A stretch of 64,000 bases of DNA from Gemmatimonadaceae bacterium (GCA_035494615.1 DATJGU010000118.1:7044-71043), one strand, 5' to 3'; shown: positions 8,875 to 38,245, counted from the stretch's first letter. Notes: generated by a model from the sequence alone, not told the origin. Numbers and translations: made by a program.

Positions 8875-9509
8875 CGGCCGGGGGGTTGGAGGTCGTCCGG
8901 CCGGGACGCCGTGGACGTCTGCGCGAGGTCCACGGCCGCCATGCGCCGTGCCGCCTCGCCCCACTCGATGGTCGGCGCGACGTCCTCGTCGGCGAGCTGC
9001 ATCGACTCGAGCGCGCGGCGGACGACGGGCTCCCCGTCGGGCACGGCGAGGCCCCAGTCCAGCTCCGCGCGCCGGCAGATGCGCTCGTGCCGCGCGCGCG
9101 CCGAGGCGAAGGGGGTGACACCGTATCTCGCCGAGAGCCGGTCGAGGCGTGCGTGCATCCCTTCGTGCACGAGCGACGCGGCGACCTGCGAGTCGGAGAA
9201 CTGCTCGTTCGCCATGAAGGTGAGCTCGAGCAGGCAGAGCCGGCGGTCGGGCAGGTAGGCCGCGCGACAGGGGTAGCGCTCGACGAGGATGCCGGCCACG
9301 TCGCGCCGGAGATGCGCCAGCCGCCACGGCTGGTACTCGGCGATGCGGCGGATCACCGACTCCGCGCGCCGGAAGACGCGCGCCGTGTCGACGTCCTCCC
9401 GCGTGTTGATCACACCGACCGGGATACCGTCGACGACTCGCGTCACGACCGCCGGCTCGGACGGGGTGCGCGCGCCGGCGAGCGCGCGCTCGATCCATTC
9501 TCGAAGCAT
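8871..9509 (-). CDS. hypothetical protein with HExxH motif (putative metallopeptidase-like)
   Basis: 212-aa ORF containing SLVHEGMHARL. Its stop overlaps the downstream start (ATGA at 8871-8874). Confidence 0.55.
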   Translation of the reverse strand: MLREWIERALAGARTPSEPAVVTRVVDGIPVGVINTREDVDTARVFRRAESVIRRIAEYQPWRLAHLRRDVAGILVERYPCRAAYLPDRRLCLLELTFMANEQFSDSQVAASLVHEGMHARLDRLSARYGVTPFASARARHERICRRAELDWGLAVPDGEPVVRRALESMQLADEDVAPTIEWGEAARRMAAVDLAQTSTASRPDDLQPPGR

Positions 9510-9537
9510 GGTCCCTCACCTCCACCCGCGGCGCACG

Positions 9538-10713: not shown

Positions 10714-10883
10714 GCGGAGTCACCTCGTGTGGGTGCGAGCGGCGGCGAGCGCCGCGGCTACGTGTTCGTCGGGCGGTGAAGATGACGCGGCGGCGGCGCG
10801 GGCGCGAGATGACCGGAAGGGCTGGCGGCGTGCGGGGACGGGGCGTACCCGTTACTCCGTCGCGTCCACCGGTCTCCCCCGCC

Positions 10884-12350: not shown

Positions 12351-12543
12351 CGCGCCGGACCGCCCGTCCGACGGGCGAAGGTCGCTCGCTCGCGCCGCCG
12401 CCGGCAGGGTGTGACCGTCGCCCTTGACACCCCGTGGCCGCACGCCAGCGTAGACCGGGAGCGGGCGGTCGGTCTACCTGGAGGCGGCGGATCATGCGGA
12501 TGTGTGGGCCGGACGTCACCGCGACGCAGGGCGAGGGGCGGCC

Positions 12544-14321: not shown

Positions 14322-15368
14322 CTAGGGCCGGCCCGCCCGCGGATCGGCCTCGCGCACGAGCCACGCGCGCACGTTCGCCGGCCGGTAGGAGCGATCCGCG
14401 TCCCAACGCGCGAGCACGCTCTCGTGCACGCGCTGCGTGCCGCTCGTGTCGATCGGTCGGTCGGTGCCGGGCGCCAGCTTGTAGAGTCCCGTGCGCGAAT
14501 CGTGCTGCTTGCCGAGCGGATCGGGGGCGAGCGGATGCGTCCGCTCCGCCTCGAGGTCCATCGCGAGTCCTGCCGCTTCGGCCTTGCCGAGCATCCACGC
14601 GAGCGAGATGTCCGAGAGCGCGGACTCGGGGTAGCCGCCGCCGACGTCGCTGTGGACGCCGGGGAACCAGGTCTGCTCGACGATCTGATTCGGCTTCGGC
14701 TTCTCGAGAAAGAGCGACGGGATGAACGGCTTGCGGCGCTCGTCGACGGCGAGCGCGTGATACGCCAGCTCCACGGTGCCGCTCAGCTCCGTGTCGTGGA
14801 AGTCGACGTCGCGGAGGGTGAGCCCGCGCAGGCCGGCAAGTGGGATACCGAGTGCGCCGACGGTGTCCCAGACGCCGACGAAGCGGATGCGGATCGGGTC
14901 CGTGCCGCAGCAGGAGTGATCGGCGCGGAAGCGCACCGCGCGCTCGTCGTCGGGGTGCACCTCGGCTGCGTGGTAGAGCTGCTTCGCGGCGACGTACTGG
15001 CCAACCGAGGTGCGGGACAGGATGCCGCACTTGCGGATCATGCCGGCGATGCTGCGCGCCGTGAACGCGCCGCGGCTGAAGCCGAACAGCCAGAGCTCGT
15101 CGCCCGGCTCGTAGTTGGCGATGAGGAAGCGATAGGCGTCGTGGATGTTGTCCTCGAGCCCATCGCCGAACGCGCCGCCGGTGAGGCGGTCGGCGTAGTT
15201 ACCCGTGCCGACGCCCTGGTCGTAGAAGATCACCTGCGGCACGCCGGCCGCGTCGTGCTTGGCGACGCGGAAGGCGAGCTTGACGACGTTGGTGGGACAG
15301 GGCGAGCCGTTGTGCTGCTGATCGGCGGTATTCCAGGTGCCGTCGCAGCAGAGGACGAGGCGTTTCAT
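14322..15368 (-). CDS. DUF2235-domain alpha/beta hydrolase (Tle1-like fold)
   Basis: Track ORF trimmed to the ATG at 15368 (MKRLVLCCDGTWN...). GFSRGA nucleophile-elbow motif and VWDTVGALG. Confidence 0.85.
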   Translation of the reverse strand: MKRLVLCCDGTWNTADQQHNGSPCPTNVVKLAFRVAKHDAAGVPQVIFYDQGVGTGNYADRLTGGAFGDGLEDNIHDAYRFLIANYEPGDELWLFGFSRGAFTARSIAGMIRKCGILSRTSVGQYVAAKQLYHAAEVHPDDERAVRFRADHSCCGTDPIRIRFVGVWDTVGALGIPLAGLRGLTLRDVDFHDTELSGTVELAYHALAVDERRKPFIPSLFLEKPKPNQIVEQTWFPGVHSDVGGGYPESALSDISLAWMLGKAEAAGLAMDLEAERTHPLAPDPLGKQHDSRTGLYKLAPGTDRPIDTSGTQRVHESVLARWDADRSYRPANVRAWLVREADPRAGRP

Positions 15369-15426
15369 GGTCGGCGGGGAAATCTGGGCCGCGAGGAGGG
15401 AGGCACCAGTGGTGTGAACGACGACT

Positions 15427-15469
15427 GCGAGTAGGTGGTAGCGAGTCGCGGGTACTCGGTAGCAGGTGG
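15427..15469. repeat. GTAG-rich dispersed intergenic motif, copy 2
   Basis: GCGAGTAGGTGGTAGCGAGTCGCGGGTACTCGGTAGCAGGTGG. The 15-mer GCGAGTAGGTGGTAG is identical to the reverse complement of 55224-55238. Confidence 0.6.
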
Positions 15470-15520
15470 CTCGCGTGGGGAGGTGTTGTACGCCGGTGCC
15501 GAGACTGCACCGACTGAAAC

Positions 15521-15821
15521 GCGGATCGGGCGGATGACTGCGCGGATCGGGCGGATCGCCACTACTGGGCTGGATGCTCCTCGCGCCGGCCCGAATTGAG
15601 CGCGCTCGTTCGCGCACCGATCTCGGCGCCGAGGCCAGAAAGGCAAAGACTTTCGGGGTGTTGGGGCAGAGGGGTCGTGCGCCGATGCATTGGATCTCGA
15701 CTCCGCAGGCAAAGAAGAGCGTGAGGTCGTGCATGGAGAGAGGAGCGGTGCGCCGGTGCATGGAGCGCAACTCCGAGAGGAGCGGATCCGCTCGATCCGC
15801 GCAGTCATCCGCCCGATCCGC
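15521..15821. repeat. 301-bp element bounded by 40-nt imperfect inverted repeats (MITE-like or large hairpin)
   Basis: The left arm (15521-15560) pairs with the right arm (15782-15821) at 37/40 positions, the first 29 of them perfect. The spacer is 221 nt. Each arm itself contains the direct repeat GCGGATCGGGCGGAT. Confidence 0.55.
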
Positions 15822-16013
15822 TTGGAGGCAGTCGAGCCCCGCCACGTGAAGCGCGGTGGGGACGGGCGCTCCTGATGCAAGGCACCGGGCCGTGACAACC
15901 GTTCGTCGGGTGGTTTCGGCGGTTCGTCGAGTCGTCCTATCGGCCGGGGCGCGCCCGGGGACTTCGTGGATCGGCAGGCTGTGTCGAACCGCCGATCACG
16001 GAGACTCCACGCG

Positions 16014-22875: not shown

Positions 22876-23196
22876 CTCGCGGGCGGCGTCGCGCGCGCGC
22901 GCCGTCTCGTCGGTGGAGCGGCGGAGCACCTCGTGCGGCTCGTCGGCGGTGCCGTGGTCGGCGGTCACGATTCGATCATCATGGTCGAGTGCTCGGGTAA
23001 CGCCTCGCGGCGGGCCTGCACCATGTCCGCTTGCATGCCGCACGCCCGAATGACGGACTCGGCGCGATCGGCCGGCCCGTCCGGTTCCGCACTCCAGCGG
23101 CGTCTCCTCCGGGCCGATACTTCAGAGAGGCGGAGTGACCTTCGTCGCCCTGGTTCGTTGTCCCTTCGGGCCCGCCCTCTCCAGGAGACCACCCGT

Positions 23197-23370
23197 ATGT
23201 CCAGGTCCACGGCAACCGATGCGACGACGCATGCGGCGCACGACCCGAAGCGGCCCTACGTGCGTCCGCTGCTGAAGCGCTACGGCGACCTCGCGCAGCT
23301 CACGCAGCAGAAGGGCCGGTTCGGAACGGACTCCGACGGCGCGCTCGCCAACAACAACAAGACCATCTGA
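23197..23370 (+). CDS. candidate RiPP (lasso-like) precursor peptide, 57 aa
   Basis: AGGAGA sits 8 nt upstream of the ATG. The peptide is MSRSTATDATTHAAHDPKRPYVRPLLKRYGDLAQLTQQKGRFGTDSDGALANNNKTI. Its leader fits YxxPxLx3Gx5Tx (Y21, P24, L26, G30, T36). It lies 27 nt upstream of the kinase gene. Confidence 0.6.
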   Translation: MSRSTATDATTHAAHDPKRPYVRPLLKRYGDLAQLTQQKGRFGTDSDGALANNNKTI

Positions 23371-23386
23371 CCGGCCTCACGGCCGG
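23371..23386 (+). promoter_or_regulatory. GC hairpin immediately after the precursor stop codon (possible attenuator or stabiliser)
   Basis: CCGGCC TCAC GGCCGG, a perfect 6-bp stem. It starts 1 nt after the TGA at 23368-23370, and the kinase GTG is at 23398. Confidence 0.35.
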
Positions 23387-23397
23387 CATGCGCGCCC

Positions 23398-24354
23398 GTG
23401 CGACGGATCCACGGTCTCGCCATCGAGGCGAACGTCGCGCTGCCCGGCCTGCCCCGGTGCGACGCGGGGGCGCCCGACGTGGTGCTCGAGCTGGTCGGCG
23501 AGCTCGCGCCGCCCGCGCCTCGACGCATCCGCTATCGCGCCGGCGCGCCTGACGCGCCCTCCGCGCGCGTCGAAGTCGCCGACGACGCGAACGGCGTCAC
23601 CACCTTCCGCTACGGCGACGGCTCGGCGATCGACGTCGACCTGCGCGGTCGGGCGGCACGCATCCGCGCGGCGATCGCGCCCGGCCAGACGCTCGAGGAT
23701 CTCTGCGCCTACCTCTACGGCCCGGTGCTCGGCTTCGTGCTCCGCGCGCGCGGCACGCTCGCGCTGCACGCGAGCTGCGTCCGGCTCGGCGACGGCGCGG
23801 TGCTCATCGCCGGGCCCGCGGGCGCAGGCAAGTCGACCACCGCCGCCGCGCTCGCCGCCCGCGGTGCCGCGGTGCTCTGCGACGACCTCACCGCGCTCGA
23901 ATTCCGGAACGGCCGGGTGCTCGCCTGGCCGGCGTTCGATCACCTGCGTCTCTGGCCCGACGGCGGCCGCGTCGTGCTCGGCGACGCCCCCCTCGAGCGC
24001 ATCACGCCGGGCTGGGACAAGCGCCGCTTTCCGCTCGCCGGCGAGTCGTTCGCCGCGGAGCCGACGCCGGTGCGGACCATCGTCGTGCTCCACGGCCGCC
24101 GAGCGCGGGCGCGCGCCACGATGCGTACCGTCGCACCGGCACGCGCCGTGCTCACGCTCGCGTCGCTCAGCTACGCGAACTACCTGCTCGACGCATCGAT
24201 GCGCGCGCACGAGCTCATGCAGCTCGGCGCGCTGCTCCGCGCGGTGCCCGTGCGCGCGCTGACCGTCCCCGCGGGGCACGAGGCGCTCGATGCGCTGTGC
24301 GAGGCGATCGCCCGCACGGCCCGCGAGTCGCGCACCGCATTCACCCGCGCATGA
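23398..24354 (+). CDS. HPr-kinase-related P-loop kinase (HprK-related kinase A-like)
   Basis: LHASCV...AVLIAGPAGAGKSTTAAAL Walker A in an HprK C-terminal-domain-like context. GTG start. Confidence 0.8.
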   Translation: MRRIHGLAIEANVALPGLPRCDAGAPDVVLELVGELAPPAPRRIRYRAGAPDAPSARVEVADDANGVTTFRYGDGSAIDVDLRGRAARIRAAIAPGQTLEDLCAYLYGPVLGFVLRARGTLALHASCVRLGDGAVLIAGPAGAGKSTTAAALAARGAAVLCDDLTALEFRNGRVLAWPAFDHLRLWPDGGRVVLGDAPLERITPGWDKRRFPLAGESFAAEPTPVRTIVVLHGRRARARATMRTVAPARAVLTLASLSYANYLLDASMRAHELMQLGALLRAVPVRALTVPAGHEALDALCEAIARTARESRTAFTRA

Positions 24355-25478
24355 GCTACTCGCTCGAGGAGTACGCGCGGATGCTCGTGGAACCGATCCG
24401 CGCATCGGCTTACTTCGCCGCGCTGCGCGAGACGGTACGCCCGGGGATGGTCGTCGCCGACGTCGGTGCCGGCCCCGGCGTATTGGGGGTCTACGCCGCG
24501 ACGCTCGGCGCGCGGCGCGTGTTTCTCGTCGAGCCGGACGCGTCGGTGTACGCGGCGCGTGCGCTCGCGGTGGAGAACGGCGTGACCGACCGCGTCGAGG
24601 TGATCCGCGCACGGTCCACCGACGTCGAGCTCCCCGAGCGCGCCGACGTGATCGTCTCCGACCTGCGCGGCGTCACGCCGTTTCACGGGCAGCACCTCGC
24701 CGCCGCCGCCGACATGCGCCGGCGTCTCCTCGCGCCCGGCGGCACGTGCATCCCGAAGCGGGATCGGGTGTGCGTCGCGCTGGTCGAGGACGAGGCACTG
24801 TACGCCCGCACGGTGCGCGGATGGTCGGAGCTTCCCGTGCCACTCGCGACCGGATCGCTCGAGCGGCTGCTCGCCAATCGCTGGTATCGCGCCCGCGCCA
24901 CGCCGGCACAGCAGCTCTCGGCGCCCGCCCCGTTCGTCACGCTCGACTACGATTGCCCTGCGCCGCCGCTCCACGCGCGCTTCGACGCCGAAGCGACGCG
25001 CGATGGAACCGCGCACGGGCTGCTGCTCTGGTTCGACACGGAGCTCGTGCGCGGCATCGGCTTCTCGAACGCGCCCGAGGCGCCGAGCGCGCTGTACGGT
25101 CAGGCGTTCTTCCCCTTCGCGCCGGCGATCCCCGTGCGGCAGGGCGAGCGGCTCGCGCTCGAGCTGCGCACCGTGCTCTCCGGCGACGACCATGCGTGGA
25201 GCTGGTCTGCGGTCGACGAGCACGGCCGGGGCGCGCGCCATGCGTCGCTGCTCGGGATCCCGCTCGACGCCGACGCGCTCGCGCGTCGAGCGGGCAGGGC
25301 GGTGCCGCGCCGCTCGCTCGAGGGGGAGATCGCGCTCGCGATCCTCCAGGCGGCCGACGGCGGCGCCACGATGGACGACATCGCGCACGCGCTGAGCGCG
25401 CGCTTCGGCGAACGGTTTCCCTCGCCGCAGCAGGCGCTCGACTACGTCACGAGTCTGGAGACATTGTGGGAGCGGTGA
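24351..25478 (+). CDS. PRMT-fold class I SAM methyltransferase with C-terminal PqqD-like (RRE-like) tail
   Basis: ATGA overlap with the kinase stop. N-terminus YSLEEYARMLVEPIRASAYFAALRE..VVADVGAGPGVLGVYAATLGARRVFLVEPD parallels the PRMT motif I / post-I layout. A beta-barrel-like middle region follows. The tail is GEIALAILQAADGGATMDDIAHALSARFGERFPSPQQALDYVTSLETLWER. Confidence 0.75.
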   Translation: MSYSLEEYARMLVEPIRASAYFAALRETVRPGMVVADVGAGPGVLGVYAATLGARRVFLVEPDASVYAARALAVENGVTDRVEVIRARSTDVELPERADVIVSDLRGVTPFHGQHLAAAADMRRRLLAPGGTCIPKRDRVCVALVEDEALYARTVRGWSELPVPLATGSLERLLANRWYRARATPAQQLSAPAPFVTLDYDCPAPPLHARFDAEATRDGTAHGLLLWFDTELVRGIGFSNAPEAPSALYGQAFFPFAPAIPVRQGERLALELRTVLSGDDHAWSWSAVDEHGRGARHASLLGIPLDADALARRAGRAVPRRSLEGEIALAILQAADGGATMDDIAHALSARFGERFPSPQQALDYVTSLETLWER

Positions 25479-26662
25479 CCTCGTCCGTCGCCGCCACGCG
25501 CGACACGCGTGCACGCACGTGGACGCTGCTCCTCGCCTGCGCGCGCCGCGCCGCGGGGATCGGGGACGTCGGCGAGGTCGTGGCCGCGGCGCAGGCGATC
25601 GACGACTGGGACCTCGTGCACCGGCGCGCGGACGCGCACGGTCTGCTTCCGTGGCTCGCCCGCGCACTCGCCGAGGGCGCCATCGCCGAGGGCGCCCGCG
25701 CGCCGATCACCGCCGCCGCGAGCGTCGTCGCGGCCCGCACGCTCGGGCAGGCGCGCCGGCTCGGCGAGCTGGTCGCGGCACTCGGCGACGCGGGTATCCG
25801 CGCGATGCCCTACAAGGGGCCGGCGCTCTCGCTCCAGCTGTACGGCGATCTCGCGCTTCGCCAATCGGTGGACCTCGACCTCGTCGTGCCGCGCGCCGCC
25901 TACGCGCGTGCGCGCGACGTGCTCTCGCGGCTCGGCCTCACGCCGCGCGGCGGCCACTCGCCGCGCCAGGAGCGCGCGCTCTTCGCCTGGCTCGGCCACG
26001 CGCCGTTCGGCCGCGGCGACGACTTCGTCGAGCTGCACTGGCGCTTCGCCGACCGGCGGTTTCCCTTCGTGCTCGACGCCGATCGCGCGCTCGACCGCGC
26101 GCACCCCACGAGCGTGGCGGGCCGCACGCTGCCGCTCATGGCGCCCGACGACCTGCTCGTCACGCTCGCGATGCACGGCACGCGACATCTCTACGAGCGC
26201 CTCGAGTGGCTCGCCGGCGTCGCGCGACTGCTCGCGTCGGCCCCCGACGACGCCTCGCGCCTCGCCGAGCACGCGGCGTCGCTCCGTGCGGGGCGGATGC
26301 TGGCCGTGAGCGTCCACCTCGCCGGCCGAGTGCTCGCGTGGCCGGTCGGCGACCCATGGCGGCGCGAGCTCGCGCGCGATCCGGCCGCGGCCGCGATCGC
26401 CGCACGCATGGCCGCCGAGCTCGAGGCGCACGAGCTGGACGACCGTCCGTGGCCCGCCGGCGCCGCCCTGCTCCACCGCTACGCCGAGCTGCTCGACGCA
26501 CCGCTCGACCGTGCGCGGCTCTTCGTCCGCGCGGCGCTCGCGCCCACCGCGCGCGATCACGAGGCCCTCGCGCTCCCGGACGCGCTCCTGCCCCTCCACC
26601 GCGTGCTGCGCCCCTTCCGGCTCGCGGGCAGGTACCTGGCCCGCGCGCTGAGCACCGGCTAG
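25475..26662 (+). CDS. uncharacterised nucleotidyltransferase family protein (NTP_transf_5-like)
   Basis: GTGA overlap with the MTase stop. AMPYKGPALSLQLYGDLALRQSVDLDLVVP...FVELHWRF matches the family signature as I recall it. Confidence 0.75.
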   Translation: MTSSVAATRDTRARTWTLLLACARRAAGIGDVGEVVAAAQAIDDWDLVHRRADAHGLLPWLARALAEGAIAEGARAPITAAASVVAARTLGQARRLGELVAALGDAGIRAMPYKGPALSLQLYGDLALRQSVDLDLVVPRAAYARARDVLSRLGLTPRGGHSPRQERALFAWLGHAPFGRGDDFVELHWRFADRRFPFVLDADRALDRAHPTSVAGRTLPLMAPDDLLVTLAMHGTRHLYERLEWLAGVARLLASAPDDASRLAEHAASLRAGRMLAVSVHLAGRVLAWPVGDPWRRELARDPAAAAIAARMAAELEAHELDDRPWPAGAALLHRYAELLDAPLDRARLFVRAALAPTARDHEALALPDALLPLHRVLRPFRLAGRYLARALSTG

Positions 26663-28443
26663 CCGTTCGTTCGGAGCCAGCGATCGAGCAGCCGGAGGCG
26701 CAGGTGCGCGAGTGCGTCGTCGGTGCTCGACCGCACGCTGATCTTCTTCAGCGCGCCGACGTCGACGTAGCGCGCGAGGGCGTCCGAGGGCCTGAACTCG
26801 ATCGGCCCGCGCGCCCACCACTGCGTCAGCCGCGCCTCGTGCAGGCCGGCCAACCCGCGCTTCGGCGCGGTGCGCACCGCGTCGGGGATGAGCCCGCGCG
26901 CCGCCTCGCGGAGGAGCCGCTTGTGCTGCATCCACGGGATCGGCGGCGTCGCGAGCGCGTAGTCGATCAGGCGCAGATCGAGATAGGGCAGCCGCACGTC
27001 GATCGGAATGCCGTGGAATCCGGCGTCGAGCGATTCGAGAAACGGCTGCCAGTGATACTGCTCGAGGCGCCGCGCCACCTCCGATCGCGTCGGATGGCTC
27101 GGCTCGGCGCGCGTGCGCAGTCGCTCGGCGCGGCGCGCGCGAAGATCGGCCCGCAGCCACGCCGGCCCGGGATCGATCACTCCTCGGCGACGGCGCCGGA
27201 ACAGGAGCTCGCGCAGCCGGAGGTGGGGTCGCGCGCCCTCGCGCCACGCGTACGCGAGCACGTCGGTCGCCACGCGCGGCGCCGAGCTCCCGCGCAGCAG
27301 ATCGAGCAGGTGCGGTGGCGCGAGATAGGCGTCGGGATCTTCGCCCCAGAACGCCACCGGCGAGTGCTCGCAGGCGCGGCGCAGCTCGTCCTGAAGGGCG
27401 AGCAGATCCAGATCGCCATGCGGCTCCGGCGTGGCCGGCACGCGGTACCGGGTCCCTTCCCGAAACCCATACTCGTCCACGTCGGTGAGCACTTGCGGGA
27501 TGCCGATGAACCGCGCGGCGAGCTGCGCACGCCCGGTGTCCTCGCTCGGCAGCAGCGTCGGCAGGTAGGCCGTGCGTGCCACCACCTGCGAGCGGTCGCC
27601 GAGCTCGCGCGCGGCGATCGCGGCGAGCGTCGTGGAGTCGATTCCGCCGCTCATGAACACGGACACCGACGAGACGCGGAGCCGATCGCGCACGCTCGCC
27701 TCGAGGCGCGCCCGGAATCCGCCGACGATCTGCTCGGGGCGCCGCGAGCGATCGACGGGCGGCGTGGGAAGCGTCCAGTAGCAGCGCGACGCCACGCCGC
27801 CGTCGCGTCCGACGCGCACCACGTGCGCCGCCGGCACGCGACGCACGGCGCGGAACGTCGTCGTGGCCGGATTCTCGTTGAATCCCTCCGCCACGAAGTC
27901 CGCGATCGCGTCCTCGTCGAGCTCGCGGCTCACGCCGGCGTCGAGCACGGCGCCGAGCGTGTTCGACGCGACGAGCCGCGTCTCGTCGAGATGATAGAAG
28001 AGCATCCGCACGCCGAACGGATCGCGGACGAGCGCCGTCGTCCGCGCCTCGACGTCGTGGATCACCGCACTGAAATCGCCGAGCAGCCGCGCCGGCGCCT
28101 CGTCACCCCACGCGCACCACGCGCAGGCGAACAGCCGCACGTCGGGATCGGTGTCGTTCACCGGTACGTTCGCGCGATGCAGCGCCTCGGTGAGCTCCGC
28201 GCGCGCGTCGAGCCGTATCTGGCCGGCCACGACGTAGCGCCCTTCGGTGGACCACGCGGGGGCGAGCCGCAGATCGCCGACGTCGAGCAGCGCCGACGCC
28301 GCGCCGAACACCCCGTCCATGACGACGCTCTCGCCGTGCGGACCGCGATGGCGCATCGCCGGCAGGAGCGCGCGCAGCTCCGACTCGGCGACGTCCGCAT
28401 CGTCGCGCCGGACGACGGCGGCGTAGCCGGTCATCGGATGGCG
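26659..28443 (-). CDS. asparagine synthetase-family protein lacking the Cys2 nucleophile (lasso cyclase-like)
   Basis: Trimmed to the ATG at 28443. The N-terminus is MTGYAAV, not MCG. PP-loop VFMSGGIDSTTLAA. 594 aa. Its stop codon overlaps the NTase stop (CTAG at 26659-26662). Confidence 0.85.
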   Translation of the reverse strand, partial: RHPMTGYAAVVRRDDADVAESELRALLPAMRHRGPHGESVVMDGVFGAASALLDVGDLRLAPAWSTEGRYVVAGQIRLDARAELTEALHRANVPVNDTDPDVRLFACAWCAWGDEAPARLLGDFSAVIHDVEARTTALVRDPFGVRMLFYHLDETRLVASNTLGAVLDAGVSRELDEDAIADFVAEGFNENPATTTFRAVRRVPAAHVVRVGRDGGVASRCYWTLPTPPVDRSRRPEQIVGGFRARLEASVRDRLRVSSVSVFMSGGIDSTTLAAIAARELGDRSQVVARTAYLPTLLPSEDTGRAQLAARFIGIPQVLTDVDEYGFREGTRYRVPATPEPHGDLDLLALQDELRRACEHSPVAFWGEDPDAYLAPPHLLDLLRGSSAPRVATDVLAYAWREGARPHLRLRELLFRRRRRGVIDPGPAWLRADLRARRAERLRTRAEPSHPTRSEVARRLEQYHWQPFLESLDAGFHGIPIDVRLPYLDLRLIDYALATPPIPWMQHKRLLREAARGLIPDAVRTAPKRGLAGLHEARLTQWWARGPIEFRPSDALARYVDVGALKKISVRSSTDDALAHLRLRLLDRWLRTNG

Positions 28444-28569: not shown

Positions 28570-29235
28570 ATGCCCATGTCGCACCCGACCTCGCGCCCCG
28601 AACCGGCGGCCCTGCGCCGGCAGCTCGCCGCCCTGCTCCGCCCGTACGTCGACGGCACCGGCGCCGGAATCGAGTCCTCCCTGCTGACCCGCGCGCGGGT
28701 CGCCGCCACCGCGCGCGACGCCGCGGCCGCCGTGCTGCCGCTGCTCGGCACTCCGGCACCGTCGGCACATCGGGTGCGCGGCGCGATCATGCCGGCGCTC
28801 GTGTGCTCGTGGGCCGAACTGGACACGGTTTTTGCGCAGACCCTCGACCGGCTGCTCGCGCTCCCGCCGGCGCTCCCCGACGTGCCCGACCCCGCGTGGG
28901 ACGCCGGCCTCGAGGAGACGCGGGCGTCGCGTCCGCGGGCGCGCGCCGAGCACCCCGACTGGACGCCGACGACCCCCGAGGCGGAGACGGTGACCGGTCC
29001 CGCCGGCAGCGTCGGCGTGGTGGTGCGCGCCGACCGCCGCCACGTGCTCATCGTCGAGGACGGCCGCTCGCTGCGCACGCATGCGCGTTGCCGCTGCGAC
29101 CCGCTGCGTCGTCGCGAGCGGGGCGAGGTCGCGTTCGAGCTGATCGCCCTCGGGCGCCGCCGCGCCGTGCTCGACGTGCGCGCCGGATCCGCCTGCGCGC
29201 TGTGCCGCGCGCCGATCGAGCCGGCCCGTCCGTGA
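28570..29235 (+). CDS. hypothetical protein, C-terminal CxC...CxxC
   Basis: 221-aa frame with consistently high GC3, whereas the opposite-strand ORFs are Ser/Arg-rich junk. RCRCD...CALCR near the C-terminus. Its stop overlaps the next start (GTGA). Confidence 0.5.
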   Translation: MPMSHPTSRPEPAALRRQLAALLRPYVDGTGAGIESSLLTRARVAATARDAAAAVLPLLGTPAPSAHRVRGAIMPALVCSWAELDTVFAQTLDRLLALPPALPDVPDPAWDAGLEETRASRPRARAEHPDWTPTTPEAETVTGPAGSVGVVVRADRRHVLIVEDGRSLRTHARCRCDPLRRRERGEVAFELIALGRRRAVLDVRAGSACALCRAPIEPARP

Positions 29236-30697: not shown

Positions 30698-30865
30698 GAA
30701 GCCTCCAGGCAGGACTGGTTGCGGTCGGCTACGCCGATCGTGCCGATCGGTGTTCTCGCACTCGCTGGCGATGTTCGTGCTCGGGGCGCAGGGAGCCGAC
30801 GACGCGCAAACGTAACACCGGTTCGCCATTGACGCAGCGTGCAGCGGCGCGCAGCGTCAGCCTTC

Positions 30866-33800
30866 ATGTACGGGACGTATGGCGTGGTGTGTCCGACGCT
30901 CGTCGGCCGCGACGGGGAGGTCGGCGCGGGCCGGTCCCTCCTCGAGCGTGTGCAGGCGGGCGCGGGCGAAGTGGCCCTCATCGTCGGCGAGGCGGGGGTG
31001 GGGAAATCGCGCCTTCTCCGCGCGCTGCTGGACGACGCGCGCAGCCGCGGCTTCTTCGTGCTCCGCGGCTCGAGCTTCGAGGCCGACACGCCGATCCCGT
31101 ACGCCCCGCTGCTCGATCTGGTACGGCTGTTCGCCGAGTCGGCGTCGCCGGCGCTCATCGCACACGTGCTCGAGCCGGCCGCTCCGGAGCTCGTGGCGGT
31201 CTTCCCCGAGCTGCGCTCGATCTTCCCCGACACCGCCCCGGGCACGACCGCGGATCCGGACCTCGCGAGGCGCCGGCTCTTCCATGCGCTGGCGCACACC
31301 GTCGACCGGGTCGCGCAGACGCAGCCCGTGGTGCTCGCGTTCGAGGACGTGCACTGGAGCGACGACGCGACGCTCGATCTGATCTTCCATCTCGTCCGCA
31401 GCGAAGCGTCGCATCCGGTGGCGGTCGTCCTCAGCCGGCGGCCCGATGAGGGCAGCGCGCGACTCGCGCAGCTCGTCGCGGAGCTCGAACGCGCCAGAGT
31501 CCTCACGGAGATCCCGGTGCGTGCGCTCGCACGCGACGGCATCGAGGAGATGCTCCGCGCCATCTTCGGCGCGCAGGCCGGGCTCGGCGCCGACTTCGTC
31601 GACATGCTGCACGGGCTCACGGAAGGCAATCCGTTCTTCGTCGAGGAGACGCTCAAGGCGCTGATCGTCGCCGGCGACCTCACGCAGCGCGACGGCGGCT
31701 GGCGCGCGCAATCGCTCGAGCGTGTTCGCGTCCCGCGCACGGCCGTGGAGGCGGTCCGTCGCCGCCTCGCCACGCTCACCGTGCCGGCGCGCCTGCTCGC
31801 CTCGACCGCGTCCGTCGCGGGACGCCGGTTCGACTTCGAGCTGCTCCGGACGGTCACGCGCGCGGAGGAGCGGGAGCTCCTCGTGCTGATCAAGGAGCTG
31901 ATCGGCGCGCAGCTCGTCGTCGAGGAATCCGCCGATCGATTCGCCTTCCGCCACGCGCTCACTCGCGAGGCCATCTACGTCGATCTCCTGGCACGCGAAC
32001 GGATCACGCTGCACCGCGAGATCGCCGCCGCCCTCGAGCGGTCGAGCACCGAGGCGGTCGATCCGGTCGTCGAGTCGCTCGCCTACCATACGTGGGAGGC
32101 CGGAGATTGGGTCGCCGCGGCGCGCTATTCCGTCCGTGCGGCGGAGCACGCGATGGCGCTCTCGGCGCCGCGGGAGGCCGTCGGACACCTCGATCGCGCC
32201 TTCGACGCCTCCGAGCGCGGAGGGGTGCAGGTGGGAATCGGCCTCCATCTCGCGCGCGGACGCGCCAACGAGACCCTCGCCGAATTCGACGGCGCGCTCG
32301 CGGACTTCACCGCTGCGCTCGAGCTGGCGCGCGCCGCAGCCGACGAGCGCGCCGCGTGGGAAGCGCTTCATGCACTCGGCAAGCTGTGGGCGGCGCGCGA
32401 CTACGTTCGGGCCGGCGAATACCGGCGCGACGCGCTCGACATGGCCCGCACGATCGGCGACGACTCCCTGGTGGCACGGAGCCTCAATCGCGTCGGCAAC
32501 TGGCACGTGAACGTCGAGGAGCCGCGGGCGGGGCTGCCGCACCACGAGGAGGCGCTCGCGATCTTCGAGCGCCTCGGTGATCCCGACGGTGTCGCGGAAA
32601 CGGTGGACCTGCTCGCCATGGCGCACCACATCGCCGGCGACCAGCGCGCCGCCGCGCTGCACTACGAGCGCTCGGTCGCGCTGTTCACCGAGAGGGACGA
32701 CCGGCGCGGCCTCGGTAACGCGCTGGCACTCCTGGCGCTCTGCGGACCGTCGTATCACGCCTCGTCCACCACGCCGTTCGCCGCCAGCGCGGTGCCCGCC
32801 GAGCTCGCGTCGCCGCGCTCGATTCAGCTCGCGCGAGAGATCGGTTGGCGGGCCGGCGAGGCGTTCGTCCGGTTCCTCATCGCCGACTGCCTCGCGTGGC
32901 GAGGGGAGTACGACCGCGCCATTCCGTTGGCGCGCGAGGCGCTGGAGCAGGCAGAGCAGATCGGACACCTCGAGTGGGCGGCCGGCGCGCACCGTCTGTT
33001 GGGCATGATCGCGCTCGACCTCACCGCGCCTCTCGCCGCGCGGACGCACCTCGAGGCGGCACACGCCGCCGCGTGTGCGCTCCGCTCCCTCGTCTGGGTG
33101 CGGTGGACGGCCGCGCCCCTGGCCGTGGCGCGCCATCTCACGGGGGACCCGGCCGCCGCGAGGGACGCTCTCGATCACGCAGCGCGATCGCGACCGGAAA
33201 GCGAAGATCGCTCCGCCGCGGCGCCTGGCGACGCACTCCTCACCCTCGGCGAGCGGCAGCTCTGGATGTCGTGCGCCGAGCTCGCCCTGCTCGACCGTCG
33301 TCCCGGCGAAGCGCTGGCGATCGTGGATGCACGACTGGCGCGGGAGCGCGCCGCCAATGCGGAATCGAGATTCGGCGTGCCGCGACTCTCGCTGATACGC
33401 GCTCGTGCGCTGCACGCGCTCGGCGACATCGACGACGCCCTCGCCGCGCTCGATGTCGCGCGATCGCACGCCCAGGCCCAGGGCGCGCGGCCGATGCTGT
33501 GGATGATCGAGTCCGCCGCAGGCCAGGCGCATCGTGCGCTCCGTCGACGGCTCGCCGCACGGCAGGCGTTCGACCGCGCAGAGGCGATCGGCGCCGAGCT
33601 CGCGGCGACCATTCCGGACGACTCGCTCCGCGCCACCTTCCTCGATGGGCTGGCCTCGATCGTTCCCGCCGCCCCCGCTCCCTCGCCGGCTCGCCGCGCC
33701 AGGGACGCCGCCGGCGGGCTGACGCGACGCGAGCGCGACGTCGTGCGGCTCGTCGCCCATGGCAAGGCGAACAAGAGGATCGCGCACGACCTCGGGATCG

Positions 33801-33937
33801 GCGAGCGCACCGTGGAAGGCTACGTCGCGAGCGCGCTCGCCAAGCTCGGATTCAACTCCCGGACTCAACTGGCCACGTGGGCCGTGGCAAAGGGAATCGT
33901 CCCGGACGCGCCGGCACGCGCGCCCCTCCGCGACTGA
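30866..33937 (+). CDS. LAL-type regulator: AAA ATPase + TPR-like region + LuxR-family HTH
   Basis: Walker A GEAGVGKSRLL. Long helical repeat region. C-terminal LTRRERDVVRLVAHGKANKRIAHDLGIGERTVEGYV. Start is ATG at 30866 or GTG at 30839. Confidence 0.9.
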   Translation: MYGTYGVVCPTLVGRDGEVGAGRSLLERVQAGAGEVALIVGEAGVGKSRLLRALLDDARSRGFFVLRGSSFEADTPIPYAPLLDLVRLFAESASPALIAHVLEPAAPELVAVFPELRSIFPDTAPGTTADPDLARRRLFHALAHTVDRVAQTQPVVLAFEDVHWSDDATLDLIFHLVRSEASHPVAVVLSRRPDEGSARLAQLVAELERARVLTEIPVRALARDGIEEMLRAIFGAQAGLGADFVDMLHGLTEGNPFFVEETLKALIVAGDLTQRDGGWRAQSLERVRVPRTAVEAVRRRLATLTVPARLLASTASVAGRRFDFELLRTVTRAEERELLVLIKELIGAQLVVEESADRFAFRHALTREAIYVDLLARERITLHREIAAALERSSTEAVDPVVESLAYHTWEAGDWVAAARYSVRAAEHAMALSAPREAVGHLDRAFDASERGGVQVGIGLHLARGRANETLAEFDGALADFTAALELARAAADERAAWEALHALGKLWAARDYVRAGEYRRDALDMARTIGDDSLVARSLNRVGNWHVNVEEPRAGLPHHEEALAIFERLGDPDGVAETVDLLAMAHHIAGDQRAAALHYERSVALFTERDDRRGLGNALALLALCGPSYHASSTTPFAASAVPAELASPRSIQLAREIGWRAGEAFVRFLIADCLAWRGEYDRAIPLAREALEQAEQIGHLEWAAGAHRLLGMIALDLTAPLAARTHLEAAHAAACALRSLVWVRWTAAPLAVARHLTGDPAAARDALDHAARSRPESEDRSAAAPGDALLTLGERQLWMSCAELALLDRRPGEALAIVDARLARERAANAESRFGVPRLSLIRARALHALGDIDDALAALDVARSHAQAQGARPMLWMIESAAGQAHRALRRRLAARQAFDRAEAIGAELAATIPDDSLRATFLDGLASIVPAAPAPSPARRARDAAGGLTRRERDVVRLVAHGKANKRIAHDLGIGERTVEGYVASALAKLGFNSRTQLATWAVAKGIVPDAPARAPLRD

Positions 33938-34072: not shown

Positions 34073-34579
34073 GTGCGTATCTCTCCTACCCTCGTGGTCC
34101 TTCTCATCGCCGCGGCCGCATGCTCCGGCGACATCGCCACCGCGCAAGGGCCGCAGTCCGCTTCTGCGCAGCGCTCGCCCACATCGAGCGCCGCGTCGCC
34201 CCAGCAATCCGTGCAGTGGAGCCCTGCACCGCCGATCTTCCCGGCCGGCGCCGAGATCGCCGTCATGCAGGGGGATCCGAGCAAAGCGGGCGAAGAGTTC
34301 ACCGTCCGGCTTCGCTTCCCCAACGGCTACCGGCTCGCGCCGCACACGCATCCCACCACGGAGAACGTCACCGTCCTCGGCGGAACGTTTCTCGTCGGCA
34401 TGGGGTCGACGTTCGAGGAGTCCGGCATGCTGAGGCTGGGCCGCGACGGGTTCGTCTCGGCGCCCGCGGAGCATCCCCACTACGCGATGGCTCGCGGAGA
34501 GACCGTCGTGCAGGTGCACGCCATCGGGCCCTTCGCCCTCACTTACGTCAACCCCGCCGACGATCCGACGAAGCGCTGA
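34073..34579 (+). CDS. cupin-domain lipoprotein
   Basis: Lipobox AAAACSG. Cupin pattern APHTHPTTENVTVLGGTF...PAEHPHYAM. Confidence 0.75.
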   Translation: MRISPTLVVLLIAAAACSGDIATAQGPQSASAQRSPTSSAASPQQSVQWSPAPPIFPAGAEIAVMQGDPSKAGEEFTVRLRFPNGYRLAPHTHPTTENVTVLGGTFLVGMGSTFEESGMLRLGRDGFVSAPAEHPHYAMARGETVVQVHAIGPFALTYVNPADDPTKR

Positions 34580-34649
34580 GCCGGACATGCTGCGCACGAC
34601 GCGAGCTCACTGCCGTCCCTGCGTCCCGTCACTCGCTCCCACGACGCAC

Positions 34650-35480
34650 ATGCCCCATGGACCCAGTCGTGCCGTCGTGGGAGATGCGGACCCGCGTAGC
34701 GCGCAGGCGCAGACGATGTGGACGTCGGGCGACTACGGGCGCATCGCGGCCGGGTACGAGCGGGGCGCGGCGGAGTTCGTCGTTCGGCTCGACATCCATC
34801 CGCGTGAGACCGTGCTCGACGTCGCGTGCGGAACGGGTAATCTCACGATCCCCGCGGCGCGGACGGGCGCCGCGGTGACCGGGGTCGACATCGCGCCCAA
34901 TCTGATCGCGCAGGCGAGGGCCCGCGCCGCGGCCGAAGGGCTGTCCGTCCGACTCGACACCGGCGACGCCGAGCGGTTGCGATACGGCGACGCGGCGTTC
35001 GACGTCGCCATGTCGATGTTCGGCGTGATGTTCGCGCCGCGGCCCGAGCGTGCCGCGGCGGAGCTGCTCCGAGTCGTTCGCCCCGGCGGCCGCATCGCGC
35101 TGGCGAACTGGACGCCGACCGGTTTCGTGGGCGAGTTGCAGGCTGCGGCGGCGCGCTACGTGCGGGCGGCGGTCGCACCAGCCCCGCTTCTCTGGGGCAC
35201 TGAGCAGACGGTCCGCGATCGGCTCGGCGCCGGCCTGTCGACGCTCACGACGAGCCGGCGCATCGTCAACATCGAGTACCCCCTCGGTCCGCGGGACGTG
35301 GTCGAGCAGTTCATCCGGCGCGACGGGCCGACGATGTGCGCATACGAATCCATCGGCGACGCCGCGCGGCGCGACTTCCGCCGGGCTCTCGAGGCGATCT
35401 GGCGGGATCACAATCGAGCGAGCGACGGGTGGACGTGCGTCGCAGCGGAGTATCTCGAAGTGATCGGAATCGTCGGGTAG
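34650..35480 (+). CDS. class I SAM-dependent methyltransferase
   Basis: VLDVACGTGNLTI, GVDIAPNLI and VRPGGRIAL. Start is ATG at 34650, with 34716 as an alternative. Confidence 0.85.
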   Translation: MPHGPSRAVVGDADPRSAQAQTMWTSGDYGRIAAGYERGAAEFVVRLDIHPRETVLDVACGTGNLTIPAARTGAAVTGVDIAPNLIAQARARAAAEGLSVRLDTGDAERLRYGDAAFDVAMSMFGVMFAPRPERAAAELLRVVRPGGRIALANWTPTGFVGELQAAAARYVRAAVAPAPLLWGTEQTVRDRLGAGLSTLTTSRRIVNIEYPLGPRDVVEQFIRRDGPTMCAYESIGDAARRDFRRALEAIWRDHNRASDGWTCVAAEYLEVIGIVG

Positions 35481-35527
35481 CCGCCCCGGGATGGCCCGCT
35501 CCGGTCTCCGCGGTGCATACTGCGGGC

Positions 35528-38245
35528 ATGCGCCTGCCCATCTCGTTCGTGTCAGTCCGCCGGTCGTCGCGGCTCGCCATTCGCGCGGCCGCGCCCGCGC
35601 TCGTGCTCCTCGGCTGCACGCCGTCCACGCCACCGGCGCCATCGCCGGGTCCGGCCACGACGTCGTCGGCTCCCGCGCCCGAGCCGTCGCGTTTCCAGCA
35701 GGACGTCCTGCTCGAGGGCGTGTTCGACGAGCCGACGGAGCTCTCCGTCGCGCACGACGGGCGCGTGTTCGTCGTCGAGCGCCATGGGACGGTCTCCGTC
35801 TACGACCCCGCGACGCACGCGCAGCGCGTGATCGCGCGGCTCGTCGTCAACGATACGGACGAGAATGGGCTCATCGGGCTCGCGCTCGATCCGGGGTTCG
35901 AGACGAACCACTGGCTCTATCTCAACCGCACCCTCGGCAATCATCACCGCCTCGCGCGGTTCACCCTCGAGGGCGATTCGCTGCGCGACGAGAAGCCGAT
36001 GATCGAGGTGCGCATCGACAAGGGATGTTGCCACACCGGCGGCTCGATCGCGTTCGACCGGCAGGGGCATCTCTTCGTCTCGTACGGCGACAACAGCAAT
36101 CCGTTCACCGCCGGCGACTACGCGCCGATCGATCCGACGCCGGGCAAGTCGCTCGCCGACGCGCTGCGCTCCGCGGGGAACACGCAGGACCTGCGCGGGA
36201 AGATCCTCCGCGTCACGCCGACGCCGGACGGCAAGTACACCATCCCGCCCGGGAATCTGTTCGCCGATCCGAAGGAAGGTCGCCCCGAGATCTACGTCAT
36301 GGGCGACCGCAACCCGTACCGCATCAGCGTCGACCAGCACACCGGATGGCTCTACTGGGGCGAGGTCGGGCCCGACGCGCGCCGGGATTCCGTGTACGGC
36401 CCCGAAGGGTTCGACGAGGTGAACCAGGCGAGACACGCCGGCAACTTCGGCTGGCCGATGTTCATCGCGAACAACCGCCCGTACCGCAATTACAACTTCA
36501 CGACGAAGCAGCTCTTCGACTTCTTCGATCCGAAGCACCCCGTCAACACCTCGCCGAACAACACGGGCGCGAAGGTGCTCCCGCCACCGCAGCCGGCGAT
36601 GATCTACTACCCGTACGAGCGGAGCACGATCTTCCCGCTCGTCGGCGAGGGCGGCCGCACGGCGATGGCGGGACCCGTCTACCACTACGACGACTTCGCC
36701 GGCTCCGCCGTTCGGCTCCCCGAGTATTACGACGGAAAGTTCATCCACTACGAGTGGATGCGCGGCTGGATGATGGCGACGACGCTGTCCCCCAGCGGCG
36801 ACTTCCTCCGCATGGAGCCCTTCCTGTCGCAGTTCACCTTCGATCATCCGGTCGACGTCGAGCTGGGGAGCGACGGCTCGCTCTACGTGCTCGAGTACGG
36901 CACCTACTGGAACGCGAAGAATCCGAACGCGCGACTGAGCCGGATCACGTATCATCCGGGCAATCGCCCGCCGGTGGCGAAGCTCGTCGCATCGCGCACG
37001 GTGGGCGCCGCGCCGCTCACGGTCGAGCTCTCCGCCGACTCGAGCTTCGATCGCGATCCGAACGACTCCGTGCAATTCACCTGGTCGATCGACGGCGTGC
37101 CCGACCGCGCTGGTGCGCGCATCACCCAGGCCTTTACGGCGCCGGGCCGGCATCACGTGCGGCTGCGCGTGCGCGACACGCGCGGTGCCGAAACCGAGGC
37201 GGCGACGGACATCCTCGTCGGCAACGCGCCTCCCACCGTGACCATCGGCATTGAAGGGAACCGTTCTTTCTACCGCGAGGGGGAGACGTTGACGTACGAC
37301 GTGAACGTCGCGGACCCGGAAGACGGCCGGCTCGGCGCCGGCATCGATCCCTCGAGGGTGCTCGTCACCATGTCGTTCGCGTCAGGCGGCGCGGCGGAGG
37401 CTCGAGCGGCGGCGAGCGGCGGCGGGCAGGCCGCCTCGGTGCCCGAAGGGCTCGCGCTCATCCGGAAGAGCGACTGCCTCGCCTGCCACGGCATCGACAA
37501 CACCTCGGTGGGCCCGTCGTACACCGCGGTCGCGCAGCGCTACGCCGGCCACCCGGAGGCGCTCGTGCAGCTCGTCTCCAAGGTCGCCACGGGCGGCACC
37601 GGCGTGTGGGGCGATCGCGTCATGCCGCCGCACCCGACGATCTCGGAAGACGATCGCCGCGCGATGGTCGCGTACATCCTGTCGCTGCGCTCGAACAAGC
37701 TCGCCCCCCGCGGACACGTTCCCCTCACCATGCACGCCGGCACGCGCGACGGTGCGTATCGCCTGCAAGCGATCTACGCCGATCAGCCGCGCAACGGCAT
37801 CGGCCCGCTCGCCGACACGGCGGTGGTCATCCTCCGCTCGCCACGCGTGCCGGCTTCGACGGCGACGGCGCTGCGCAACATCGGCATCACCTCGGGCCAG
37901 GGCGCGGACGGGACGACCCACATGCTCGTCACCGCGTACGCCGACACCTCGTCGTTCTCGCTCGGGCGGCTCGACCTCAGCGGGGTCGCGCGCGTGACGA
38001 TCGATTTCCACGGCACGGAGAACCGGCATCCGTTCACCGTCGAGCTTCGCGACGGCAGCCCGAGCGGCATGCTCCTCGGCGGCGCGAACGTCCGCCCCGC
38101 GAGCGACGCCTGGACGACGCAGTCGATCGACATCGCCTCGTCTGGCGAACACGCAGTGTACGTCGTGCTGCGCTCGCCGGATCGGGACGTCGGGCAGTTC
38201 GATCCGATGGTGACGGTCGACGCGATGACGTTCGAGCAGCGGTGA
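35528..38245 (+). CDS. PQQ-dependent sugar dehydrogenase (SGDH-like) fused to PKD, cytochrome c and carbohydrate-binding-like domains; lipoprotein
   Basis: Trimmed to the ATG at 35528 (lipobox LLGCT). Beta-propeller motifs ENGLIGLALDP and GDRNPYR. PKD-like segment. Heme site CLACHG. C-terminal beta domain. Confidence 0.85.
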   Translation: MRLPISFVSVRRSSRLAIRAAAPALVLLGCTPSTPPAPSPGPATTSSAPAPEPSRFQQDVLLEGVFDEPTELSVAHDGRVFVVERHGTVSVYDPATHAQRVIARLVVNDTDENGLIGLALDPGFETNHWLYLNRTLGNHHRLARFTLEGDSLRDEKPMIEVRIDKGCCHTGGSIAFDRQGHLFVSYGDNSNPFTAGDYAPIDPTPGKSLADALRSAGNTQDLRGKILRVTPTPDGKYTIPPGNLFADPKEGRPEIYVMGDRNPYRISVDQHTGWLYWGEVGPDARRDSVYGPEGFDEVNQARHAGNFGWPMFIANNRPYRNYNFTTKQLFDFFDPKHPVNTSPNNTGAKVLPPPQPAMIYYPYERSTIFPLVGEGGRTAMAGPVYHYDDFAGSAVRLPEYYDGKFIHYEWMRGWMMATTLSPSGDFLRMEPFLSQFTFDHPVDVELGSDGSLYVLEYGTYWNAKNPNARLSRITYHPGNRPPVAKLVASRTVGAAPLTVELSADSSFDRDPNDSVQFTWSIDGVPDRAGARITQAFTAPGRHHVRLRVRDTRGAETEAATDILVGNAPPTVTIGIEGNRSFYREGETLTYDVNVADPEDGRLGAGIDPSRVLVTMSFASGGAAEARAAASGGGQAASVPEGLALIRKSDCLACHGIDNTSVGPSYTAVAQRYAGHPEALVQLVSKVATGGTGVWGDRVMPPHPTISEDDRRAMVAYILSLRSNKLAPRGHVPLTMHAGTRDGAYRLQAIYADQPRNGIGPLADTAVVILRSPRVPASTATALRNIGITSGQGADGTTHMLVTAYADTSSFSLGRLDLSGVARVTIDFHGTENRHPFTVELRDGSPSGMLLGGANVRPASDAWTTQSIDIASSGEHAVYVVLRSPDRDVGQFDPMVTVDAMTFEQR

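Follow-up and report, generated by a model that had tools for sequence, protein, structure and literature searches.

The subject of this analysis is a gene cluster in a stretch of DNA from a Gemmatimonadaceae bacterium (GCA_035494615.1 DATJGU010000118.1:7044-71043), whose 64,000 nt, with a G+C content of approximately 72% and closest homologues whose public names point to Gemmatimonadaceae, are hereafter called the window and were the sequence compared throughout. Positions 23197 to 28443 hold five genes, designated A, K, M, N and C, which probably constitute a functional cluster for a lasso-type RiPP, a peptide synthesized ribosomally and modified after translation. The features of this locus, with the evidence for each in brackets, were as follows.

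23183-23188, plus strand: Shine-Dalgarno sequence AGGAGA, with an 8-nt spacer to the precursor ATG (direct sequence reading).
23197-23370, plus strand: precursor gene A, 57 aa (leader-motif fit, conservation and codon changes).
23197-23307, plus strand: leader of the precursor, residues 1-37, ending in YVRPLLKRYGDLAQLTQ.
23308-23367, plus strand: predicted core of the precursor, residues 38-57, QKGRFGTDSDGALANNNKTI.
23398-24354, plus strand: K, HPr-kinase-like P-loop kinase, 318 aa (weak Hpr_kinase_C and HprK matches, invariant residues, synteny and the ratio of non-synonymous to synonymous substitution rates, dN/dS).
24351-25478, plus strand: M, PRMT-fold S-adenosylmethionine (SAM) methyltransferase, 375 aa (Pfam, PDB profile and AlphaFold2/Foldseek).
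25475-26662, plus strand: N, NTP_transf_5 nucleotidyltransferase-fold protein, 395 aa (Pfam E-value of 1.1e-44, synteny and dN/dS).
26659-28443, minus strand: C, candidate ATP-dependent AsnB-like macrolactam (isopeptide) cyclase, 594 aa (NCBIfam, N-terminus and the context of its relatives).

Direct reading of the sequence found all five open reading frames (ORFs) intact at the places where the original prediction, made from the sequence alone, had put them. As that prediction had described, the 57-aa ORF follows AGGAGA at an 8-nt distance and is separated by 27 nt from the next gene, K, whose start codon is the GTG at 23398, and the translational coupling that it had proposed was seen in the ATGA overlap of K and M (24351-24354) and in the GTGA overlap of M and N (25475-25478). 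N and the convergent C share overlapping stop codons (26659-26662). A perfect 6-bp GC hairpin, CCGGCC-TCAC-GGCCGG, was observed directly 3′ of the precursor stop codon (23372-23387). It was considered as an attenuator and rejected, since its folding energy equals that of shuffled sequence (z -0.5), which gives no evidence for such an element. No sigma-70-like promoter was found at 22900-23500.

Residues 21-37 of the precursor, YVRPLLKRYGDLAQLTQ, are an exact fit to the lasso leader motif YxxPxLx3Gx5Tx, with the Thr at position -2, and this motif was kept in all relatives examined. The only NCBIfam matches of the precursor were NF033528 (lasso_cyano) and NF033521 (lasso leader), both weak and under the cut-off. 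The precursor family comprised approximately 20 Gemmatimonadota loci and more than 40 further loci, and a homologous small ORF was present at nearly all syntenic Gemmatimonadota loci, in two copies at some of them; its conservation beside homologous operons, to which the original prediction had tied its claim, was found in four different gene orders. Moreover, the comparison of the leader-motif codons of six 57-codon orthologues revealed 66 synonymous and 9 non-synonymous changes, indicating that the precursor gene is real and under selection and that, judged by its codons, the leader motif is under purifying selection. With a single exception, the 20 Gemmatimonadota precursors had a core of 19-21 aa (20 aa in the window), whose conserved features were an acidic residue at position 10, or at 9 or 11 in a few members, with Gly after it, and [KR]-[TS]-x at the C-terminus. 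The window core ends in K-T-I, so that its penultimate residue is Thr.

A second lasso precursor of canonical appearance was observed at two of the related loci, which are denoted by L numbers. It lies at 7843-8031 in L015 and at 8274-8648 in L016, on the minus strand in both, and reads MYSRPQVQRFGSLRELTQ and then GGSSANYDF..., with the geometry Gly1-Asp8 and two Cys residues. This gene is divergent from the A-K-M-C operon and comes without its own B or C genes, so that one cyclase may serve two precursor types.

The placement of C was supported by its N-terminus, its profile scores and the context of its relatives. C starts with MTGYA, has lost the glutaminase residues and keeps the SGGIDS PP-loop, and the Cys-less AsnB homologue of 594 aa with an MTG start that the original prediction had described was thereby read from the sequence. 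Its Asn_synthase and GATase_7 matches were above the Pfam cut-offs, and a GATase_7-like N-domain is retained. The best NCBIfam model was the lasso cyclase NF033535, with 169.5 bits, whereas the AsnB model TIGR01536 gave 122.6 bits against a cut-off of 267. All C orthologues start with M-[ST]-G-[YF], and in a full-library search approximately 115 of the 150 nearest representatives started with MSG, VSG or LSG, mostly MSG. Ten sampled representatives all scored best on NF033535 (167-419 bits), none of them reaching the AsnB cut-off. The genomic context of two C relatives, which was that of canonical PqqD-B2-C clusters, was decisive; B1, a PqqD protein, stands for the RiPP recognition element (RRE) and B2 for the leader peptidase. 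In L031, the relative P0144 belongs to the array PqqD - Transglut_core3 (B2) - C - A - C - A - A - K - PRMT-like M - N. Regarding the choice that the original prediction had posed, between a lasso cyclase and an amidotransferase of primary metabolism or exopolysaccharide synthesis, the scores and the clusters of the relatives decided for the former, and C is thus placed by sequence comparison in a lasso-cyclase-like ('MSG') clade with Cys1 changed to Ser or Thr, not in AsnB. When the PDB was searched with the C sequence for solved lasso cyclase structures, only the hydroxyamidotransferase 7ylz was returned (E-value of 2e-7).

K carries the P-loop GPAGAGKST, and its residues H124, K145, D162 and D163 were invariant in 12 orthologues. 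This order, His-Lys-Asp-Asp (H-K-D-D), is the motif reported for lasso kinases (PMC9266682). K always adjoins M in the synteny comparisons, and its dN/dS was 0.22-0.37. The NTP_transf_5-like nucleotidyltransferase of the original prediction was confirmed in N by the Pfam match, and N proved to be an accessory gene, with a dN/dS of 0.21-0.40 where present and absent from L001, L005, L015 and L016. For K, the proposed assignment to the HPr-kinase C-terminal type stood as far as the P-loop is concerned and was weak as to Hpr_kinase_C itself, which gave 24.5 bits against a cut-off of 33.3; the HprK structure 3tqf was matched with an E-value of 0.006. The link to the HPr-rel-A system could not be upheld, because K reached 36.0 bits on TIGR04352 (HprK-related kinase A), whose cut-off is 200, in a match limited to the P-loop region (residues 116-176); the cyanobacterial K orthologue reached 30.3 bits. 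The kinase and nucleotidyltransferase are a known lasso tailoring pair, found in paeninodin and pseudomycoidin (PMC9266682), and also occur together in linear polyphosphorylated peptides (PMC13381572). Therefore the locus does not newly link an orphan cassette to a precursor and a cyclase, as had been proposed.

The methyltransferase M matched PRMT_C and PrmA above the Pfam cut-offs, and its family profile retrieved PRMT1 from the PDB with an E-value of 1.6e-34. The AlphaFold2 model (pLDDT 92.6) was matched by Foldseek to PRMT1, PRMT6 and PRMT8 with E-values of 1e-24 to 1e-26 and TM-scores up to 0.73/0.86, so that the PRMT fold named in the original prediction was corroborated and M is, on its modelled structure, a true PRMT fold composed of a Rossmann domain and a beta-barrel. 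The active site is altered: the double-E loop, SEWMGYCLFYES in PRMT, reads S-D104-L-R106-G-V-x-P-x-x-G113-x-H115 in M, with E144 replaced by D104, E153 by G113 and the THW motif by A-L-Y249. D104, R106, G107 and Y249 were invariant, and H115 was present in at least 90%, among 26 diverse M members, cyanobacterial and Blastocatellia-annotated ones included. Since the guanidinium-binding residues are replaced, classical arginine methylation is not expected, and the Arg on the catalytic loop points to an acceptor that is anionic. Residues ~300-375 of M (~25248-25475) form a conserved four-helix module without beta-sheet, which is found both with and without a stand-alone PqqD gene in the vicinity. 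The PqqD-like character that the original prediction had attributed to this tail is weakly indicated, its similarity not being significant: profile-profile comparison by hhalign with the stand-alone PqqDs of related loci gave a probability of 0.6%, the top Foldseek match of the tail model was the PqqD 3g2b (E-value of 1.3, TM-score of 0.49), and the NCBIfam PqqD model TIGR03859 matched M with an E-value of 0.09. M forms more than 100 full-length sequence clusters at 52-100% identity, and its public annotations are '50S ribosomal protein L11 methyltransferase' or 'protein arginine N-methyltransferase 1'; the PrmA model TIGR00406 gave 35 bits against a cut-off of 183. No PRMT-fold enzyme was found in a lasso or other RiPP pathway in the searchable literature, which agrees with the view of the original prediction that such a module is not known from the described lasso pathways; subscription journals were mostly outside reach, so that this is absence of evidence only.

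Relatives of the cluster were widely distributed. The scan of one genome per species with the methyltransferase alignment retrieved 19 relatives at an E-value of 1e-40 or better, all of them Gemmatimonadota metagenome-assembled genomes except one labelled only 'bacterium'. Approximately 20 Gemmatimonadota loci pair the precursor with K, M, an optional N and C, and the tblastn synteny revealed four arrangements: A-K-M-(N) with C convergent; PqqD-A-K-M-N-ABC, where ABC is an ATP-binding cassette exporter, with C convergent; A-K-M-C on one strand; and PqqD-(B2)-C-A-M-K-N-(ABC). In L007 and L009, unrelated genes are inserted between N and C. The search with the L031 methyltransferase returned 3764 matches at E-values below 1e-10, including Blastocatellia- and cyanobacteria-annotated proteins, and the clusters of Argonema galeatum (JAIQZM010000012) and Phormidium sp. 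(CP143273) are ordered PqqD-B2-C-A-K-M-ABC-N, with the cyanobacterial-cluster B2 passing NF033537 (81.5 bits). The A-K-M-(N)-C set thus occurs in cyanobacteria, in L031 (GC 51%) and in many metagenome contigs, usually together with the canonical PqqD (B1) and Transglut_core3 peptidase (B2). The K, M and N of L031 showed 37%, 37% and 29% identity to those of the window, and its three precursors are of the same family. The window proteins and the proteins of the cyanobacterial K-M-N clusters did not reach the cut-offs of the NCBIfam models lasso_cyano and lass_lactam_cya, though these were the closest models; the models were therefore built for a subfamily other than this one.

From these homologies, the K-M-N module is widespread and resident in canonical lasso clusters of other lineages, which makes the window locus less singular than first thought. 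Its description as non-canonical in the original prediction therefore requires adjustment: the lasso-like reading was maintained and the K-M-N genes are not peculiar to this locus, the non-canonical feature being that B2 and a discrete RRE are missing. Gene content and orthology place the window cluster as a descendant, or a sister, of canonical B1-B2-C clusters.

Two related loci presented duplicated genes. The L031 cluster (5122-13751; GC 51%, GCA_964570175.1) has two cyclases and three precursors, and its second cyclase is preceded by a truncated B2 remnant (8175-8414), a state that resembles B2 loss caught midway after a duplication. In L058, multi-frame fragments matching K and M (10298-11751) directly follow an intact K-M pair and are probably a decayed duplicate.

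Taking the locus and its relatives together, we consider it likely that the window encodes a functional lasso-type RiPP cluster, reduced from the widespread B1(PqqD)-B2-C-A-K-M-(ABC)-N family by the absence of the protease and the RRE. The 57-aa precursor, whose gene is conserved, would be made first. PadeK, ThcoK and PsmK phosphorylate the C-terminal Ser of their linear precursors, and PsmN adds a hexose to the phosphate (PMC9266682). By analogy with these kinases, K would phosphorylate the linear precursor at the penultimate Thr conserved in its C-terminal [KR]-[TS]-x, and by analogy with PsmN, N would then decorate the phosphate, for example with a hexose, an optional step because N is missing in some relatives. 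M would methylate an acceptor that is probably not the arginine guanidinium, since the two PRMT Glu residues and the His are replaced by the invariant Asp-x-Arg-Gly and Tyr; candidate acceptors are the phosphate, a carboxylate near the C-terminus, or the neighbouring Lys or Arg. The leader would be cut after Thr-x, at a putative site, the cutting enzyme being a B2-type peptidase whose gene lies elsewhere, or some other protease. Finally, C would adenylate the conserved Asp10 and join it to the new N-terminal amine, and the product would be a macrolactam whose ring is predicted to count 10 residues and through which the tail, also of 10 residues, may be threaded.

Several observations weigh against this interpretation. 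Within the 64-kb window, neither B2 (Transglut_core3/NF033537) nor a stand-alone PqqD (B1) was found by tblastn or with custom hidden Markov models (HMMs), the tblastn search for B2 returning only noise at E-values up to 10, and both genes were also absent within ~10 kb in seven related loci. Leader removal and leader recognition consequently have no catalyst assigned to them, and the window cluster has no ABC exporter either. The assignment of K as a kinase rests on the weak profile scores given above. Residue 1 of the core is Gln in the window and Ala, Ser, Leu, Ile, Thr or Arg in relatives, which is atypical, and the conserved acceptor Asp is at position 10. The lasso rings known so far have 7-9 residues. 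The accessible part of a lasso review of 2026 mentions only 8- and 9-aa rings (PMC13352647). No characterised product of any member of the subfamily was found in the searchable literature.

The position of the ring acceptor depends on the cleavage register. In L072, L080, L085 and L111, whose core starts with Gly, the acidic residue stands at position 8; this is the classical lasso geometry and supports cleavage after Thr-x. The same register puts the acidic residue at position 9 or 10 in most members, including those that carry B2, and, when applied to the window, predicts the 10-residue ring. The window core has Asp8 in addition to Asp10; its 90%-identical relative L030 is without Asp8, and the acceptor range of the family is 8-11.

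The absence of B2 was then placed against its presence elsewhere. The same B2 queries succeeded in L012, L020-L022, L031, L034, L035 and 16 metagenome loci, and in the Gemmatimonadota loci L012 and L020-L022 PqqD lies on one side of the B2 gene and the next gene on the other. A further 80 loci came from a metagenome scan, and a census was taken of the loci with K and M, 'no B2' being counted where the flank measured 3 kb or more on each side: 23 loci had B2 and 11 well-flanked loci did not, the latter being the window, seven other Gemmatimonadota loci, L058, L072 and L085. Inside the B2-less clade, the dN/dS of K, M, N and C was 0.14-0.40, and by this measure the genes are under purifying selection, not decaying. 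The flanks of the B2-less loci shared no further conserved gene. The candidates considered for a substitute protease were a Peptidase_M3 (L001), a trypsin-like gene (L015 and L016), an esterase (L029) and a 219-aa orphan of the window, all rejected as none is conserved between loci. Another candidate, the N-terminal Thr or Ser of C acting in place of B2 as an N-terminal nucleophile, was rejected as a special feature because the MSG, VSG or LSG starts are so common, with the Ser start shared by B2-adjacent cyclases. No signal-peptidase-family match was reported for the genes called near related loci or for 10 scanned ORFs of the window, the remainder of which was not scanned for an SpI peptidase. 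The Thr at -2 and the YxxPxL are invariant in the B2-less clade, which favours, on leader conservation, a B2/RRE pair encoded elsewhere in the genome.

The alternative that survives best, though we judge it improbable, is that the B2-less clusters no longer make a lasso peptide. The peptide would stay linear or attached to its leader and, on the model of the linear polyphosphorylated peptides, undergo phosphorylation and methylation, and C would perform another ATP-dependent amidation of Asp, such as the conversion of Asp to Asn or another amide, the formation of an unthreaded branched-cyclic lariat, or a side-chain isopeptide between Asp and the C-terminal Lys. In favour of this stand the lack of B1 and B2 in cis in the window and the 10 other well-flanked loci, and an acceptor at position 10, beyond the known range of 7-9; a conserved Lys lies 8 residues past the Asp, and cassettes of K, N and RRE work without a cyclase (PMC13381572). 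However, the invariant Thr(-2) and YxxPxL of the B2-less clade are the elements that serve B2/RRE recognition in lasso systems, the precursors of B2-less and B2-bearing loci are collinear, Asp10 included, and the orthologues of C include the cyclases of canonical clusters. Moreover, L014 and one of the L031 precursors have Arg in place of the conserved Lys, and this speaks against Lys as the nucleophile.

There is only a very slight chance that the locus is a decaying remnant, in which B1 and B2 were lost, pseudogenisation is under way and no product is made. The loss of essential genes relative to the ancestral layout, the loss of N too in some relatives and the unrelated genes between N and C in L007 and L009 could be taken as signs of decay, but all five ORFs are intact, the translational coupling is kept, M alone persists in more than 100 full-length clusters, and both the dN/dS of K, M, N and C and the codon differences of the leader motif, 66 synonymous to 9 non-synonymous, speak for genes in use. 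The public names of the methyltransferase suggest housekeeping genes with no relation to one another, with a methyltransferase for ribosomal protein L11 or arginine, an asparagine synthetase and a small ORF that is spurious; this notion has next to no chance of being correct, given the failure of C and M to approach the AsnB and PrmA cut-offs, the missing Cys1 and PRMT catalytic residues, and the co-occurrence of the genes across lineages and gene orders beside a lasso-leader peptide, a synteny that already refutes it.

The reading as a reduced lasso-type cluster can be compared with described systems, the closest of which are the paeninodin/pseudomycoidin-type lasso clusters (A, B1, B2, C and D with K and N). 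Both kinds have the AsnB-like cyclase, the H-K-D-D HprK-like kinase, the NTP_transf_5-type protein, the [Y/W]xxPxL...T-x leader and a core with a conserved hydroxyl residue at its C-terminal end, the likely phosphorylation site. The window differs in having no B2, discrete RRE or exporter, in the extra PRMT-fold M always beside K and in the acceptor Asp at position 10. In addition, the phospho-acceptor of the paeninodin type is the C-terminal Ser (PMC9266682), whereas in the window it would be the penultimate Thr, and the leader of paeninodin-like precursors is WxxP (PMC13381572), whereas that of the window is YxxP. The cyanobacterial, Gemmatimonadota and metagenomic B1-B2-C-A-K-M-(ABC)-N clusters (Argonema, Phormidium, L020-L022) have orthologous K, M (with the altered site and helical tail), N, C and precursor, at 30-40% identity, but keep PqqD and B2, both lost in the clade of the window. 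The linear polyphosphorylated peptide clusters of Bacillota share with the window the YxxP leader, the HprK-like kinase, the NTP transferase and the lack of B2, and differ in presenting a discrete RRE, an SpI-type leader peptidase and an MsbA-like exporter, with neither the cyclase nor the methyltransferase of the window (PMC13381572). The triculamin-type clusters likewise encode a lasso cyclase with no B1 or B2 in the cluster, but have a leaderless precursor with a C-terminal follower, a cyclase without the N-terminal domain and acetyltransferase tailoring (bioRxiv 10.64898/2026.07.03.736388), unlike the 37-aa canonical leader, the absence of a follower and the full-length cyclase of the window. 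M shares with the type I PRMTs (PRMT1, PRMT6 and PRMT8) the Rossmann and beta-barrel fold (TM-score up to 0.86) and the SAM-binding motifs, and is distinguished from them by the altered double-E and THW loops, the extra C-terminal helical module and the RiPP-cluster context.

The value of lasso peptides lies in their use as ultra-stable scaffolds and antibiotics, and the rules of their biosynthesis have been thought well defined: RRE, B2 and C, with rings of 7-9 residues. In the lineages described here, the protease and the RRE appear to have been lost repeatedly while the remaining pathway stays under selection, and this loss, the altered PRMT active site and the acceptor at position 10 make the locus more interesting than it was at first reading. 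If true, the loss of protease and RRE, the methyltransferase chemistry or the position-10 ring would each extend the rules of genome mining, since tools requiring B genes would skip the cluster. The thousands of methyltransferase homologues, whose named sources include cyanobacteria and Blastocatellia, with Gemmatimonadota from the present scan, also point to a large unstudied subfamily with a PRMT-fold tailoring enzyme. A bolder proposal, to which we assign a low likelihood, is that this Gemmatimonadaceae clade matures a lasso or lariat peptide free of RRE and B2, with an unprecedented 10-residue macrolactam and a C-terminal phospho-Thr capped by a new RiPP methylation from the PRMT-fold enzyme with the Asp-x-Arg pocket. 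Such capping could be the O-methylation of the phosphate or of a carboxylate, and the bulky modified C-terminus could plug the larger ring.

Other genes of the window were recorded around the cluster. A 219-aa gene with high third-position G+C (28576-29232, plus strand), the orphan mentioned above, is divergent from the cyclase gene; its only homologue, 94% identical and without a Pfam match in the precomputed annotation, was in contig L030, which is 90%-related, and it was absent at the other related loci. Approximately 2.4 kb beyond the start of the cyclase gene, a 1032-aa protein (30839-33937, plus strand) has the look, read from its translation, of a LuxR-type regulator with an N-terminal AAA/STAND ATPase, and is not conserved beside the cluster elsewhere. 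Upstream, a protein with the catalytic domain of a Tle1-like phospholipase of the type VI secretion system (T6SS) is encoded at 14322-15995 on the minus strand (Pfam E-value of 3e-84), and the same Tle1-like domain adjoins RHS/YD-repeat genes in contig L030. Downstream, a 1013-aa fusion of a glucose/sorbosone dehydrogenase with PKD domains and a cytochrome c domain (35204-38245, plus strand) is preceded by a second class I methyltransferase at 34434-35480.

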